A DNA stretch of 32,000 nt from Candidatus Omnitrophota bacterium (GTDB taxonomy: Bacteria; Omnitrophota; Gorgyraeia; Duberdicusellales; 4484-171), in the NCBI GenBank assembly GCA_021735045.1, contig JAIPHU010000007.1:1-32000 (forward strand), written 5' to 3'. The notes beneath the pieces are model-generated. The model searched no databases. It was not told the origin of the DNA and saw only the letters and a list, made by a program, of their open reading frames with translations. This document shows, in pieces, positions 323 through 29,244 of this stretch (positions are counted from its first letter, which is position 1; every line of letters starts with the position of its first letter). The position numbers and the translations under genes were made by a program.

Positions 323-1540
323 TTACTTTTTAAAAAAACTAAGAACTACTTTAATTACGTAATCTATTTTAGATTTTTCCATAAGCGGATAAATGGGCAG
401 GCTAACAACCTCTTTAATAACTTTATTAGTATTTTCCAACTTATAAGGAACTTTTGCCGTCTTAAAAGCTTTCATCTTATCGAGGCTGACTGGATAGTAG
501 CTTCTGGCAGAAATTCCTTTTGAATTCAAATAGCTGATAAATTTAGCTCTTGTTTTAGCAGAAACTTTTATAGTGTACAGGTGATAGACATGTGAACATG
601 GCATAGCGCATGGCGCATGGCGCATAGAGTTTAATATATTCTCAGAAATTCTTCTTTTCTTTACGCTATACTCTCTGCGCTTTGCGCTTTGCTCAGAAGG
701 TATCTGGATGTCTTTAATTGAAGAAAAGGCTTGATTATACTTTTGGGCGATTTGGATTCTTTTTTTATTGAAGGTATCAATATGTTTTAACTTCGCTAAT
801 AATACTGCGGCTTGAATTGAGTCTAGACGGGAATTGTAACCGCAGTAATCTGCTTTGTATGAGTCAGTTTGGCCATGGTTGCGTAAAACCTTGATTAATT
901 CAGCATCTTTTTTATTTTTTGCAGTAACCAAGCCGCCATCACCAAAACCACCGAGATTTTTAGAAGGGAAAAAACTAAAGGCGCCAAAATCTCCGATAGT
1001 ACCTAACTTCTTATTTCTAAAAGAAGCCCCGAAACTCTGTGCACAATCTTCTACAATAAATAATTTATTATCTTTAGCTATTTTTTTAATCGCAGCCATC
1101 TGGCAACTTCTACCATAAAGATGAACTGGAATAATGCCTACTGTGTTTTTAGTAATAGCTCTTTTAATATTTTCAGGGCTAATATTAAAAGAATCAGGGT
1201 CAATATCTACAAATACCGGTTTTGCTCCGGCCCTAATTATTACCTCTGCAGTTGCTAAAAAGGTAAAAGGCGTAGTTACAATTTCATCATCTTTATCAAA
1301 AAACTCTTTTTTCTTAAATTTTAAACAAGCGACACGTAAAGCAAGCAGCAATGCATCTGTACCGGAGGAAACCCCAATTGCATAGTTTATACCTAGATAT
1401 TTAGCAGCCTTTCTTTCAAATTTCTCTACCTTAGGCCCAAGCACCCATTGTTGACTGCTAAAACAATCTTTTAACTGCTTATCAACATCTTCCTTTAAGA
1501 ATTTATATTCTGGCTTTAAATCTAACAAAGGTACTTTCAC
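323..1540 (-). CDS. DegT/DnrJ/EryC1/StrS-family PLP-dependent sugar aminotransferase carrying a 32-codon in-frame insert
   Basis: 405-aa ORF with a GTG start at 1540 preceded by AAGG. Family-typical stretches are VPLLDLKPEY, GVSSGTDAL, SFFPSKNLGGFGDGG (Schiff-base Lys region) and HVYHLY. The insert is at 601-696. Confidence 0.9.
   Translation of the reverse strand: MKVPLLDLKPEYKFLKEDVDKQLKDCFSSQQWVLGPKVEKFERKAAKYLGINYAIGVSSGTDALLLALRVACLKFKKKEFFDKDDEIVTTPFTFLATAEVIIRAGAKPVFVDIDPDSFNISPENIKRAITKNTVGIIPVHLYGRSCQMAAIKKIAKDNKLFIVEDCAQSFGASFRNKKLGTIGDFGAFSFFPSKNLGGFGDGGLVTAKNKKDAELIKVLRNHGQTDSYKADYCGYNSRLDSIQAAVLLAKLKHIDTFNKKRIQIAQKYNQAFSSIKDIQIPSEQSAKRREYSVKKRRISENILNSMRHAPCAMPCSHVYHLYTIKVSAKTRAKFISYLNSKGISARSYYPVSLDKMKAFKTAKVPYKLENTNKVIKEVVSLPIYPLMEKSKIDYVIKVVLSFFKK
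601..696. repeat. word-built imperfect palindrome (GCGCATG heptads) lying in frame inside the DegT gene
   Basis: The arms at 601-629 and 671-696 pair around a 41-nt AT-rich loop, with mismatches at 625, 618 and 611 (7-nt spacing). The length is 96 nt, or 32 codons. G+C is clearly above that of the flanks. Confidence 0.75.
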
Positions 1541-6799: not shown

Positions 6800-7774
6800 T
6801 TAATCTTTCCTAACTACTAAACTTTCCTTTGCTAACAGGCCTGCACCGATTATTCCGGCATTTTTTAGTTTGGCTTTCCGGAGTTTAAGGCCTTCTAAAT
6901 TCGGCCACATTGCTTGCTCTTTTATAACTGAAATTAGATAAGGCCTAAACAATTTATAGGCACCAGATACTCCTCCGCCTAAAATTATTGCCTGAGGATT
7001 AAAAATATTTACCATTCCGGCTAAAAAGCGGCCTAGATAAAAAGAAAACTCTTTCCAAATACAAATTGCATTTTTTTCGCCTTTTAGGCCGCGCTGATAG
7101 ATATCTTTTACTCCTTCGACTCCCTTGATGGTTCGACTGCGCTCACCAGTTGGTCGCTCAGGACTCCGCTCACTTCGTTCGCTTCGTTCCTTTTTAACAA
7201 GCTTATTATATCTTTTAACTAAATAGCTATTTCCCACAAAAGTTTCAATACAGCCGTAGTTTCCACATCCGCAACGGTTCTTTTTTAAACTTATGGGAAA
7301 ATGGCCTAACTCTAAAGCACTAGTTTTTCTGCGTAAGATTTGCTGATCAAAGATAACTGAACTGCCCAAACCTGTCCCTAAGGTAAGAAAAATTGCCCGG
7401 CTTAAATTCTTACCGGCTCCTAAGCGAGCTTCGGCTAAAGCAAAAACATTAGCATCGTTATCAACTGATACAGGAATTTTTACTTTTTTCTCTAAAGATT
7501 TCTTTAAAGGGAACTTCTTCCAGCCTAAAATATTAGGTAGATAGTAGATAAAACCTTTTTCTATATTAATAATCCCTGGAGCACCGATTCCTATTGCTTT
7601 AACTTTGTATTTTTTGAAACTAGCTAATAAGGAAACTATCTCCGAAATAAAAAACTCTTTTTCTCTTAACTTGCTGGAAGAATATACTTTTTTAGCCAAT
7701 ATTTTGCCTTTTGAGTCTATAACCCCAGCTTTTATATATGTACCGCCCCAATCAATCCCAAGGTATGTGCTCAT
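6800..7774 (-). CDS. ROK-family sugar kinase (glucokinase-like) with a GC-rich in-frame repeat tract
   Basis: 324 aa with the N-terminal ATP motif GIDWGGT, DNDANV, and the ROK Zn/Cys signature GHFPI...CGCGNYGCIE. An atypical ERSERSERSPERPTGERSRT segment is encoded at about 7113-7190. Confidence 0.82.
   Translation of the reverse strand: MSTYLGIDWGGTYIKAGVIDSKGKILAKKVYSSSKLREKEFFISEIVSLLASFKKYKVKAIGIGAPGIINIEKGFIYYLPNILGWKKFPLKKSLEKKVKIPVSVDNDANVFALAEARLGAGKNLSRAIFLTLGTGLGSSVIFDQQILRRKTSALELGHFPISLKKNRCGCGNYGCIETFVGNSYLVKRYNKLVKKERSERSERSPERPTGERSRTIKGVEGVKDIYQRGLKGEKNAICIWKEFSFYLGRFLAGMVNIFNPQAIILGGGVSGAYKLFRPYLISVIKEQAMWPNLEGLKLRKAKLKNAGIIGAGLLAKESLVVRKD
7113..7190. repeat. GC-rich in-frame repeat tract inside the ROK kinase gene
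   Basis: The coding strand reads GAACGAAGC GAACGAAGT GAGCGGAGT (a 9-nt period giving ERS ERS ERS), followed by repeated GAGCG and GTCGAA words. G+C is far above that of the surrounding gene. Confidence 0.7.
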
Positions 7775-8944: not shown

Positions 8945-9121
8945 TTACTTCTTTTTCTTTTTAGTTGTTTTCTTTTTCTTAGTTGTCTTTTTCTTAGTGG
9001 ATTTCTTTTTCTTAGTTGTCTTTTTCTTTTTAGCTGCTTTTTTCTTAGTTGTCTTCTTTTTCTTTGCTGCTTTTTTCTTCGTTGTCTTTTTCTTTCGAGT
9101 TGTCTTCTTTCTTGCGGCCAT
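8945..9121 (-). CDS. 58-aa Lys/Thr/Ala-repeat basic protein (histone-H1-like / nucleoid-associated candidate)
   Basis: The ATG at 9121 is preceded by AGGAGGTG with a 5-nt spacer. The product is MAARKKTTRKKKTTKKKAAKKKKTTKKK.... The gene has its own candidate promoter (9172-9200) and terminator (8881-8914). The ORF-track start at 9151 lacks an SD. Confidence 0.6.
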   Translation of the reverse strand: MAARKKTTRKKKTTKKKAAKKKKTTKKKAAKKKKTTKKKKSTKKKTTKKKKTTKKKKK

Positions 9122-11681: not shown

Positions 11682-11703
11682 GAATTAACTCGCTTCTCTG
11701 TGT

Positions 11704-11779
11704 TTCGTTCTACGTTCTATGTTCAACGTTCTACGTTTGATAATTTTCAACGTTGAACGTCGCACGTCGAACGTTGCAC
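11704..11779. repeat. family A word-palindrome, copy A1 (trpB|trpA spacer)
   Basis: The left arm is GTTCTAC GTTCTAT GTTCAAC GTTCTAC GT (11707-11736). The right arm is AACGTTGAACGTCGCACGTCGAACG (11749-11773). It is near-identical to the copy at 19944-20015. Confidence 0.8.
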
Positions 11780-11783
11780 AAAA

Positions 11784-12956: not shown

Positions 12957-13569
12957 TTTTTACCCTCTCAATAAATTTTTTCATTGCTTTTTTATCTTTT
13001 TTCCCGACAAGCTCTTCTATCCCACTTGCTACATCAACTCCATAAGGAGAGATTTTTATTACGTTTTTTATATTAGTTGAATCAAGCCCCCCGGAAAGAA
13101 TAACTTTTTTTTCTTTTTTTATCTGAGTTTTGATAAATTTAAGAAAATCTGCTGATAAAGTCTTTTTTTCTTTTTTCTTTTCTTTAAAAGGAATATCAAA
13201 CATTAAAGCATCAAGGCCTTGATAACGCAAGATAGTTTCGGCCAAATAATCCGGAAAACAAACTTTAACTACTTTATATTGAGGCATAAATTGATTACAA
13301 TAAGTTACAGTTTCTTTACCGTGGAATTGTAATAGATCAAGGCCAACTGAGGAAGCAATATCAGAAACCTCCTCCTTTTTTTGATTCATAAAGACCCCTG
13401 CTTTAGAGATAAACGGGCCTAATCTAGCTATAATCTTTTTAGCTAAAGCCGGCCTAATATAACGAGGGCTCTTTTTAGTAAAAATAAAACCTAAAGCATC
13501 AGCCCCTAGTTGTTCGGCCAACAGCGCATCTTCTAAATTAGTAATACCGCAAATTTTGACTCTAATCAT
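12943..13569 (-). CDS. trpF: phosphoribosylanthranilate isomerase
   Basis: 208 aa with the start [10 protein letters not shown] and GADALGFIF. It overlaps trpB by 14 nt and sits in trp context. Confidence 0.88.
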
Positions 13570-13577
13570 GATTATTA

Positions 13578-14357
13578 TTAGGCATCGATATGGAGTTCTT
13601 TTATTTTTTCTTCTATATTATCTGCTTCCATAAAAGCATGCCCGACCAATATTGCATCAACTCCCAACCCTTTAAGAAGGAGTACATCCTTTAGAGAATT
13701 TATCCCGCTTTCTGAAACCTGGACTACACCTTCGGGAATAAAAGGAAGTAGTTTTTTTGAACGATTTATATTTATTTCAAGAGTATGCAGATTGCGATTA
13801 TTTACTCCGATAATATCAGCTCCCATCTTTAAAGCTTTTCTTAACTCTTTTTCAGTGCTAACTTCAGTTAAAACATCAAGGTTTAAACTTTTTGCAAACT
13901 CATAAAGTTCTTTAGCTTGTTCAAATTCTAAAATACCCATGATCAAAAGAATCGCATCAGCCCCGATTGCTTTTGCCTCAATAATCTGTATCTTGTCTAA
14001 GATAAAATCTTTTTTTAAAACAGGCTTGGTCGTTTCTCTTTTTACTTCTTGGATATAACTATTTTTTCCCAGAAAAAAATCTTCTTCGGTTATAACCGAT
14101 ATTGCATTAACCTTTTGACTATCAAAAATTCTAGCTATACGAGTTGGGGAAAAATCTTTTTGTAAAATTCCTTTTGAAGGTGAAGCCTGTTTCATCTCAG
14201 CAATCAAAGATATCTTATTTTTCCGCTCTATGGCTTCTTTAAACGAGTTAACTTCACCTGATTTTTCTGCTAAAGAAACCAGAGCTTCTTTATTCCTCTT
14301 TAATATCCGGATTCTTTTCTTCTTGCTTTCAACTATAAGTGAGAGTACTTTATGCAT
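13578..14357 (-). CDS. trpC: indole-3-glycerol-phosphate synthase
   Basis: 259 aa with IAEMKQASPSKG, GADAILLI and IGVNNRNL. It overlaps trpD by 8 nt. Confidence 0.9.
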   Translation of the reverse strand: MHKVLSLIVESKKKRIRILKRNKEALVSLAEKSGEVNSFKEAIERKNKISLIAEMKQASPSKGILQKDFSPTRIARIFDSQKVNAISVITEEDFFLGKNSYIQEVKRETTKPVLKKDFILDKIQIIEAKAIGADAILLIMGILEFEQAKELYEFAKSLNLDVLTEVSTEKELRKALKMGADIIGVNNRNLHTLEININRSKKLLPFIPEGVVQVSESGINSLKDVLLLKGLGVDAILVGHAFMEADNIEEKIKELHIDA

Positions 14358-15976: not shown

Positions 15977-15990
15977 TAATTAGCCTTGGT

Positions 15991-16082
15991 CATCAACGAA
16001 TTTACCAATCTCATACGAATATACGAATATTTATTTCTACTTATTCGTAAATTCGTAATTGATTCGTATATTCGTCGATTGA
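15991..16082. repeat. family B word-palindrome, copy B1 (murA|trpG spacer)
   Basis: The sequence is CATCAACGAATTTACCAATCTCATACGAATATACGAATA ... TATTCGTAAATTCGTAATTGATTCGTATATTCGTCGATTGAT. The core 16015-16029 pairs with 16042-16056 at 14 of 15 positions. Confidence 0.8.
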
Positions 16083-17392: not shown

Positions 17393-17494
17393 CATCATCA
17401 ACGAATTTACTAATCTCATACGAATATAGGAATGAATAAAAATAACGGTTAGTCGTGAACCAAGAATCAGAAACTAATTCGTACATTCGTTGAT
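17393..17494. repeat. family B word-palindrome, copy B2 (prmC|murA spacer), right arm partly replaced
   Basis: The left arm matches B1 at 36 of 39 positions. The outer ATCAACGAAT (17397-17406) pairs with ATTCGTTGAT (17485-17494). Confidence 0.7.
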
Positions 17495-19943: not shown

Positions 19944-20015
19944 GTTCTACGTTCAATGTTCTACGTTCTACGTCAATAATATTTTTCAATAACGTTGAAC
20001 GTCGCACGTTGAACG
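19944..20015. repeat. family A word-palindrome, copy A2 (32 nt after the rho stop)
   Basis: The left arm 19944-19973 matches A1 at 28 of 30 positions. The right arm 19991-20015 matches A1 at 24 of 25. Confidence 0.8.
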
Positions 20016-20047
20016 AATAGTTAAATAGCTATGAATCATGTATTATA

Positions 20048-29156: not shown

Positions 29157-29244
29157 CATCATCACCGAATATACGAATTTTTTACGAATATACGAATAAA
29201 TATCTATGCCGATTCGTAAATTCGTATAGATTAGTAAATTCGAT
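29157..29244. repeat. family B word-palindrome, copy B3 (gap|pgk spacer)
   Basis: The sequence is CATCATCACCGAATATACGAATTTTTTACGAATATACGAATA ... GATTCGTAAATTCGTATAGATTAGTAAATTCGAT. The core 29184-29197 pairs with 29212-29225, with the same A.A mismatch as B1. Confidence 0.75.

Follow-up and report, generated by a model that had tools for sequence, protein, structure and literature searches.

The window analyzed here, i.e., the whole stretch of 32,000 nucleotides (nt) at positions 1 to 32,000 of contig JAIPHU010000007.1 from a Candidatus Omnitrophota bacterium, harbors a gene for a sugar aminotransferase of the DegT/DnrJ/EryC1/StrS family (hereafter DegT) in which an additional segment of 96 nt is embedded without loss of the reading frame. 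This segment, located at 596-691, is probably a hairpin made of heptanucleotide repeats that has been resized by replication slippage, is tolerated by the gene as a passenger, and is translated as a disordered peptide. The gene, the segment, and the parts of the hairpin are listed below (unstranded means that no strand is assigned; ORF, open reading frame).

323..1540, minus strand: DegT/DnrJ/EryC1/StrS-family sugar aminotransferase, 405 amino acids, GTG start (ORF list, Pfam, PDB alignments, AlphaFold, synteny)
596..691, minus strand: inserted segment, 96 nt, codons Q284-C315, delimited by homology with locus L038 and translated as QSAKRREYSVKKRRISENILNSMRHAPCAMPC
599..629, unstranded: arm 1, heptad array (Tandem Repeats Finder, custom period scan, pattern search), encoding MRHAPCAMP
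630..670, unstranded: A/T-rich spacer of 41 nt with 22% G+C, loop of the fold-back, encoding roughly YSVKKRRISENILN
671..694, unstranded: arm 2, heptad array (Tandem Repeats Finder, pairing table), encoding QSAKRRE

The segment is extra DNA, an insertion and not ancestral sequence, as had been proposed in a first-pass annotation made on the letters of the sequence, and both the known structures and the homologues bear this out. The alignments with the DegT-family structures of the PDB all break at residue 284/285 of the query and resume at 315/316; the 31 residues of the query correspond to 3 in 7b0d, and the shortest Omnitrophota homologues have 5-7 residues at the same site. In the AlphaFold model of the protein, built on 50 homologues (predicted local distance difference test, pLDDT, 86.8; predicted template modeling score, pTM, 0.86), residues 284-288 and 294-314 have a pLDDT lower than 50, while the remainder of the DegT fold is confident; the Foldseek comparison matched the DegT crystal fold, with template modeling (TM) scores of 0.83/0.91 against 7b0d. 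The insertion site is the link between the pyridoxal phosphate (PLP)-binding domain and the C-terminal domain, and the model predicts that the insert sits there in a disordered, tolerant surface loop. The size of 96 nt (32 codons) and the preservation of the frame had been recognized in the first-pass annotation, which had placed the element at 601-696, where it is translated in frame as EQSAKRREYSVKKRRISENILNSMRHAPCAMPC between the flanks IQIPS and SHVYHLYTI of the 405-residue ORF. Both the peptide and its flanks were found as described; the boundaries are instead set by the homology with L038 at codons Q284-C315, i.e., with a shift of 5 nt.

Each of the two arms is a tandem array of its own heptad. 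On the plus strand, arm 1 reads GGCATAG CGCATGG CGCATGG CGCATAG AG, corresponding to (ATGCGCY)3-ATGCC in the mRNA sense, and arm 2 reads CTCTCT GCGCTTT GCGCTTT GCTC, corresponding to (AAGCGCA)2. Tandem Repeats Finder detected both of them with a period of 7 (601-625, 3.6 copies, 94% matches, and 676-692, 2.4 copies, 100% matches), and the custom period scan found the same periodicity in both arms. The two arrays are convergent, are made of complementary words, and lie within about 100 nt; the arms at 601-629 and 671-696 around an AT-rich loop of 41 nt, from which about 20 pairs had been counted by hand starting at g629-c671, are indeed present. On the plus strand (pairing i+j=1300, from 629/671 to 606/694), 20 of the 24 arm positions are paired, through 18 Watson-Crick and two G.T pairs; both G.T pairs are C.A mismatches on the mRNA (minus) strand, where 18 pairs are left. 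The non-pairs fall at 625, 618, and 611, i.e., one per heptad as had been noticed, with a further one at 607. This regularity exists because each arm is a tandem array of its own word, GCGCATG in arm 1 and GCGCTTT in arm 2, which are complementary at five of seven positions plus one G.T on the plus strand; the phasing therefore follows from the tandem structure and represents neither an independent signal nor separate evidence of design. As regards base composition, the G+C content had been said to be far above that of the gene, which applies to the two arms only (62% and 58%); the spacer has 22%, and the whole element reaches 44% against 34% in the rest of the gene.

The region 595-702 (108 nt) folds as RNA with -32.2 kcal/mol on the mRNA strand (z -3.5) and with -32.8 kcal/mol on the plus strand (z -3.3), two out of 200 shuffled sequences being as good in either case; when it is folded as DNA, the z-score is -2.9. 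The fold-back is thus real and better than chance, but only moderately exceptional. Several intergenic hairpins of the window rank above the element in a sliding-window fold scan; moreover, the element is marginally more stable on the non-transcribed strand, whereas three out of four compared intergenic hairpins favor the transcribed one. The reading of the sequence also revealed that the word ATGCGCC and its complement are without stop codons in all frames and that the spacer is open in three frames out of six, and therefore the survival of such an insert in frame is not improbable.

At the boundaries that L038 defines, no clear flanking (target-site) duplication came to light, and the arms are imperfect inverted repeats. 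The heptad TTCTGAG (minus strand) occurs both at the 5' boundary of the insert (692-698) and within the spacer (641-647), bracketing its left half of 44 nt, which could be a trace of the construction of the element or a coincidence. The Rfam scan of the whole window at gathering thresholds returned tRNA only, no transposase, RAYT (REP-associated tyrosine transposase), or other mobile-element gene is present among the ORFs of the window, and neither GCGCATG nor GCGCTTT has a run of three or more G, so that neither is a G-tract word able to form a G-quadruplex. A scan for terminators and promoters around the DegT gene revealed nothing at the element, with zero terminator-like sites on both strands between 300 and 1700 and no T-run after either arm. 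An intrinsic terminator was consequently rejected, given the lack of a U-run and of terminator-like sites and the 41-nt loop. The possibilities of an intein or an intron were discarded as well (no Rfam match, no Pfam intein family in the protein, and a length of 32 residues, which is too short), as was that of a translational bypass (no stop codon in the segment and no matching take-off and landing codons).

A second carrier of the element exists. The DegT protein P0013, encoded at locus L038 in an unrelated sample and in a different gene neighborhood, shares 64% amino-acid identity with the protein of the window and at the same codon position harbors CAAAGCGCAAA...AGCGTAAA..AAAA..ATATAT..AACTCT-(ATGCGCY)3-ATGCC. 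The spacer of the window partly aligns with that of L038 (AGCGTAAA..AAAA and ATATAT..AACTCT), and the right arm, corresponding to 12 codons, shows 92% nucleotide identity between the two genes, against 58-65% in the flanks. In the L038 copy, which folds back with -39.1 kcal/mol (z -2.7), a palindrome of about 20 nt (GCCTGCC/GGCAGGC) is nested in the left arm. In a neighbor-joining tree, P0001 is the sister of the window gene, which lies among ten homologues without the element, while P0013 is located on a distant branch; the closer relatives carry other sequences at the site, and P0013 is the only other carrier among the homologues. The presence of a homologous segment of similar length in orthologues from unrelated lineages had been indicated as a sign of an ancestral loop; P0013 alone has such a segment and all of the closer homologues differ, which argues against that interpretation. 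Since the ten closer homologues and all the structures are without the element, it is not an ancestral loop. Judging from the sequences, retention from a common ancestor would require many replacements plus an unexplained conservation, and independent or lateral acquisition by the two lineages appears more parsimonious. An arm identity of 92% between proteins that are 64% identical points either to a recent lateral acquisition or to a constraint that a tolerated passenger would not have. The conservation of the arm between two diverged genes is the main unexplained fact, and it keeps open both the possibility of a mobile element and that of a functional structure.

In the DegT genes of Omnitrophota, heptad arrays and other small palindromes have repeatedly landed and grown in this loop. 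In a survey of 120 homologues, 72 of which had matching flanking motifs, the stretch between 'IQxP' and 'HVYHLYT' ranges from 4 to 51 residues. Self-comparison of the 46 homologue loops with at least 11 residues yields 26% identity at lag 7, the value for all the other lags being about 5.5%; a tandem 7-nt word is read through all three frames, hence the period of seven residues in the peptide. As an example, the loop of the sister gene P0001 (L039) is encoded by GACGTTG GACGTTG GACTTTG GACATTG GACTA, i.e., (GACGTTG)x4.7; that of P0068 (L049) contains about 16 heptads of YNTCTGN, and that of P0063 (L051) an (AACCATC)n array. In P0018 (L050), the same loop is occupied by a G+C-rich nested palindrome that is not made of heptads (fold -40 kcal/mol). 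A second hot spot of DegT is located between 'FGAxY' and 'KKLGTxGD'. P0068 also has five heptads of the complementary word in another variable loop, located about 330 nt upstream, and the opposed arrays of L049 therefore flank conserved coding DNA. Over 95 kb of Omnitrophota loci, period 7 alone is over-represented, with 14 arrays against none in the shuffled sequences, periods 5, 6, and 8-12 giving from zero to three arrays; it is the only over-represented period in the window alone too, according to the custom scan. When nine orthologous gene pairs of the window and L040 were checked for heptad or hairpin inserts, only DegT was found to have one.

The number of heptads varies between close relatives at this same loop, as observed in another lineage (L051-L053). 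The DegT genes of L051/L052 and of L053 differ by exactly 21 nt, i.e., three heptads, with zero mismatches in the first 900 nt, and a single protein cluster at 90% identity holds alleles of 412 and 405 residues. Among the full-length proteins of this cluster there are in-frame variants only, and the deviations of its truncated members lie away from the arrays. The array of the window itself is represented by one full-length allele (P0121).

Some assemblies break at the arrays. Contig JAIPHE010000008.1 (L042) is identical to the window over 10,917 nt, with zero mismatches, and ends at about position 624 of the window, the first base of the (ATGCGCY) array; its DegT is consequently recorded as a fragment of 305 amino acids (P0002), while the full protein of 405 amino acids (P0121) lies on a 56,582-nt contig of another record. 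A further partial protein, P0123, also ends within its own array. These ends fit either assembly breaks induced by the repeats or heterogeneity of the population.

The 26-nt array (ATGCGCY)3ATGCC is not restricted to Omnitrophota. A search for the word, which had been recommended in the first-pass annotation, disclosed no second copy in the window, and the array was found in 37 places of species-representative genomes, far above a chance expectation that is well below 1. About 13 of these loci belong to Oscillatoria PCC 10802, and the others include further Oscillatoria species, Microcoleus, Aetokthonos, several Desulfobacterales and deltaproteobacterial metagenome-assembled genomes (MAGs), Calditrichia, Luteitalea, Lentimicrobiaceae, and Burkholderiales. 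At many sites an opposed array of RGSGCAW-type words is located upstream, separated by a spacer, and most copies have no ORF spanning them. According to a rough ORF-based count, the neighboring genes are convergent for 12 arrays, co-directional for 14, and divergent for 3 (3/29). In Oscillatoria, the spacer between the opposed arrays (about 14 nt, GCTGWRARTCTTCC) is conserved at many loci. In L007 (5916-5941), belonging to a deltaproteobacterial MAG, (ATGCGCC)3ATGCC lies in frame in a glycosyltransferase family 2 (GT2) gene and encodes VAMRHAPCAMPS. A scan of metagenomes with the junction between spacer and arm, AACTCT(ATGCGCY)3, retrieved five loci, with no further DegT copies and no large family. 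In L004, the region around 1755 (reverse strand) contains an element with opposed arrays that overlaps what would be, on the other strand, the coding region for the N-terminal hydrophobic segment of a BatD-family protein.

If the segment is a resized heptanucleotide hairpin, its arrays would have arisen and been resized by replication slippage and, 7 not being a multiple of 3, only net changes in multiples of 21 nt would persist inside an ORF. As for the opposed arrays, their origin or spread might be due to a switch of strand or template, to gene conversion among dispersed arrays, or to some mobilizing activity. The element would then be transcribed, the ribosome would unwind the hairpin, and translation would yield a disordered surface loop of 32 residues, rich in Lys/Arg and Cys/Pro, with no catalytic role; the insert is probably irrelevant to the biology of the enzyme. 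Some observations weigh against this scenario. A neutral passenger should diverge like synonymous sites, yet the right arm has kept the identity reported above for L038. The arrays of the window are short and imperfect (two perfect units plus variants), so that ongoing slippage at this very copy would be no more than a possibility; the retention of the segment in mRNA and protein is suggested by the open frame. In addition, GCGCATG has no second copy in the 32-kb window, even when up to three mismatches are allowed, and the alignment of spacers between genomes gave no conserved core, window and L038 aside, and no evidence of a discrete transposable unit.

These same data bear on the other explanations that can be envisaged. 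One of them is that the segment is a discrete non-autonomous mobile element, comparable to MITEs (miniature transposable elements with inverted repeats) or to Rickettsia palindromic elements (RPEs), mobilized as a unit by an enzyme encoded elsewhere and having a strong target preference, so that two lineages would have independently acquired it at one and the same position of DegT. Two distant DegT genes have at the same codon the same composite, made of left arm, spacer motifs, and right arm, with the high identity confined to the element; the common spacer of the Oscillatoria arrays is what a dispersed family would show, and the breakage of independent assemblies at arrays (L042 and P0123) is expected of repeated DNA. 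We nevertheless regard this explanation as rather unlikely, in view of the single copy in 32 kb, the unrelated spacers of different genomes, the lack of a clear target-site duplication and of transposase or RAYT genes in the window, and the opposed arrays of L049 and L039, which flank conserved coding DNA or a whole gene and indicate that it is arrays that recur, not a fixed hairpin unit. A broader version of the idea, which seems to us unlikely, is that heptad-array hairpins are self-propagating DNA spread across phyla, endowed with some copying machinery and a homing-like target preference. It may be based on the DegT codon shared by two distant Omnitrophota lineages together with the occurrence of the 26-nt array in cyanobacteria, Desulfobacterota, Calditrichota, and Acidobacteriota, and such elements may repeatedly remodel the surface loops of enzymes in frame in Omnitrophota.

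The hairpin might otherwise be a selected RNA or DNA structure, acting as a site of mRNA processing or stability, as a translational pause at the domain boundary, or as a protein-binding site with a periodicity of 7 nt. The fold beats the shuffled sequences in both carriers, the arm is far more conserved than the host gene, and the intergenic relatives, seldom located between divergent genes, lie near the stop codon of the gene upstream, which fits a role of the class at 3' ends. Such a selected function is quite improbable in our opinion, since the closest relatives work without the element, the same site is occupied in other lineages by tandem-only arrays or by unrelated palindromes, no U-tract, terminator-like site, or Rfam family is associated with it, and the slightly greater stability on the non-transcribed strand (the G.U pairs existing in the antisense only) is opposite to that of three out of four intergenic hairpins. 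A phase-variation (contingency) switch, in which the gain or loss of a single 7-nt unit would shift the frame and toggle a surface-polysaccharide enzyme, would agree with a unit that is not a multiple of 3 and lies inside an ORF, with the location of the gene in a sugar-nucleotide/polysaccharide operon, with the in-frame array of the GT2 glycosyltransferase, with the different heptad numbers of near-identical alleles at this loop in another lineage, and with the two assemblies ending at arrays, if these reflected heterogeneity of the population. About two perfect units per arm are, however, far below the typical phase-variable tracts, the variants seen differ by three units and remain in frame, the deviating truncated proteins deviate away from the arrays, and repeat or hairpin effects on assembly graphs explain the breaks equally well, so that a switch of this kind is very improbable. 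Lastly, P0013 has a homologous segment of the same length and a public contig ends inside the element, which might suggest that this DegT subfamily had the loop ancestrally or that the assembly is at fault. Neither appears credible: ten closer homologues and all the solved structures are without the element, the gene resumes in frame with conserved motifs after it, L042 is identical through the left arm and the spacer up to the array, and the unrelated sample of L038 carries the same element.

Heptanucleotide repeats have for decades been recognized as the most over-represented long simple repeats of many bacteria; the locus described here represents a compact natural experiment, since one and the same loop of a protein has received distinct heptad words, opposed arrays, or unrelated small palindromes depending on the Omnitrophota lineage, with a length polymorphism of three heptads on record and one element common to distant lineages. 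It also reveals that in a little-studied phylum such repeats can be written into proteins, as happens with RPEs. From a practical viewpoint, assemblies and gene calls break at heptad arrays, one public contig ending inside the element. The element is probably passenger DNA and belongs to a widespread and already noticed class of 7-base tandem repeats, not to a new kind of element; even so, a systematic study would be justified by the recurrent in-frame colonization of a loop, by the element shared by distant lineages, and by the array found across phyla. If the self-propagating alternative were true, the long-unexplained excess of heptamers would acquire a mechanistic handle.

The host gene is the first complete gene of the window. 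Its product matches Pfam PF01041 (E 2e-111), with a sub-threshold match to Beta_elim_lyase beside it; its PDB relatives are 7b0d, QdtB, and WbpE, and its closest named relatives belong to Candidatus Omnitrophota MAGs. The operon partners of DegT are a UDP-glucose dehydrogenase and an epimerase, and the gene order (LptD, UDP-glucose dehydrogenase, epimerase, DegT) matches that of the loci of the closest relative (L039-L041). Five heptads, in mRNA sense AAGGTTA AAGGATA AAGGATA AAGGTTA AAGT, are located at 1539-1574 and cover the last codons and the stop codon of the epimerase together with the Shine-Dalgarno region of DegT; AAGGA thus recurs every 7 nt directly 5' of the GTG start. In L038 another heptad array, (ACATAAC)x5, lies directly upstream of the DegT start.

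Further inserts and arrays were observed in L038, L039, L050, and L051. The small G+C-rich palindrome CCTGCC..GGCAGG, nested in the L038 copy of the element (1219-1241), also occurs in frame at the second DegT loop of L051 (about 2030-2075), where it adjoins another mini-hairpin, TCCGCC TCG GGCGGA. It is translated into peptides such as ACRQAG, LPAGRQ, and CLPARQG, and the alleles P0063 and P0128 read GACLPARQGSASGG and GGSLPCRQAGASGG, as though the palindrome had been flipped. In L050 (1-2013), the epimerase gene located 5' of the DegT gene of P0018 holds an intein with a LAGLIDADG domain (Pfam), a selfish insert of a different sort that is likewise in frame in an operon of this type. In L039, opposed GACTTTG/GACGTTG arrays (13057-13077 and 13468-13491, also 13884-13939) surround a whole small gene of the 23S_rRNA_IVP family, the word being the one that fills the DegT loop of L039, and (TAGAAGA)n arrays lie before a second nearby gene of the same family; both small genes have the appearance of cassettes delimited by heptad arrays.

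Elsewhere in the window, palindromes built of repeated words occupy intergenic positions directly 3' of stop codons within operons (trpB|trpA, aroA|trpG, and others):

11699-11780 and 19945-20017, unstranded, intergenic: palindromes sharing CGTTCTA/ACGTTGA heptads
15990-16079, 17395-17490, and 29159-29240, unstranded, intergenic: palindromes sharing the 8-nt words ACGAATAT/ATTCGTAA
19371-19542, unstranded, intergenic: palindrome of CAAATTA-type words

None of them is followed by a U-run, and most fold better on the transcribed strand. The GTTSAAC palindromes among the intergenic ones were considered as sites resembling integron attC and rejected, given that the core-like words are internal and not terminal and that the context is a trp operon. 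A ROK-family kinase gene (6800..7774) has, at about 7120-7180, 12 extra residues (ERSERSPERPTG) with respect to the sister genome, encoded by the 9-nt repeats GAACGAAGY, i.e., an in-frame expansion with a different period. An ORF of 58 residues at 8945-9121 (minus strand), consisting almost entirely of Lys, Thr, and Ala (MAARKKTTRKKKTTKKKAAKKKK...), is encoded by tandem repeats of 33 nt (15+18); the public record lists it as a gene, and it has no Pfam match.

The comparison with the known families of small repeats concerns both these intergenic palindromes and the element in DegT. Repetitive extragenic palindromes (REP), the bacterial interspersed mosaic elements (BIME), and the REP doublets that form hairpins (REPIN) have a conserved sequence, are associated with a RAYT (Y1) transposase, and are extragenic by definition. 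The intergenic palindromes of the window resemble REP/BIME in being short, imperfect, and close to the 3' ends of genes within operons; unlike REP/REPIN, the arms of the DegT element are tandem heptads, and no RAYT is present among the ORFs of the window. The DegT element differs from a MITE in that no internal sequence is conserved across the copies of different genomes, the pair formed by the window and L038 aside. The small dispersed repeats of Nostoc, as Elhai and co-workers reportedly described them in 2008, are said to be very small and to insert into other repeats, hairpins, and genes. The CCTGCC/GGCAGG palindrome of about 20 nt (in the L038 copy and in the second loop of L051) parallels this nesting, although it belongs to a different sequence family and a different phylum.

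RPEs, as far as the summary of Ogata et al. 2000 in PMC10969869 describes them, lie in frame in unrelated metabolic genes, at sites where the fold tolerates them, and are translated; according to the same summary, they measure about 150 bp, form conserved sequence families with a conserved encoded peptide, and have many copies per genome. The element of the window is likewise palindromic and in frame in an ORF at a position tolerated by the fold, a resemblance in effect only: it occurs once in 32 kb, has a variable spacer, is based on heptads, and its host is Omnitrophota-like and not a Rickettsia. Its membership in the RPE family is thus not supported. Nor are RPEs the only precedent, as had been stated in the first-pass annotation, given the existence of heptanucleotide repeats, of the opposed pairs of Xanthomonas (PMC4692102), and of intragenic in-frame small repeats outside Rickettsia, reviewed in PMC10969869.

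The idea that the element is of no recognizable class also had to be abandoned, since its arms belong to the heptanucleotide tandem repeats, whose over-representation in bacteria is known, and its 26-nt array is found in many phyla. In the statements of PMC4692102 and PMC4679880 that cite Mrazek 2007, heptamers rank first in abundance among the long simple-sequence repeats of many bacteria, and slippage is offered there as the cause of their general excess. The short tandemly repeated repetitive (STRR)-type heptanucleotide repeats of cyanobacteria are presented in the corresponding statements (PMC4692102, PMC4679880, citing Mrazek 2007 and Mazel 1990) as mostly intergenic, variable in copy number, and of unknown function. 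The element of the window shares with them the tandem 7-nt units and the over-representation of period 7; at its loop, in another lineage, the copy number differs between close relatives. Its arms have 3.6 and 2.4 copies according to Tandem Repeats Finder, and arrays of the class have at least about 2.5-3 head-to-tail copies. Unlike them, it lies in an ORF and in frame, and its words differ from STRR, GGGAATC, and TAACTGA. No description of such heptad inserts in Omnitrophota was found in the literature. In Xanthomonas, opposed arrays of the GGGAATC heptamer form 70-75 pairs per genome, mostly intergenic and with no known function (Rehm et al. 2015, PMC4692102); the length of the repeats differs between related strains, while the type of pair is preserved (PMC4692102). 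The copy of the window departs from these pairs in being coding and in its word GCGCATG, which is without G-tracts; it has in common with them two convergent arrays of complementary heptads and a possible stem-loop, and the Xanthomonas pairs are its nearest match among the known systems.

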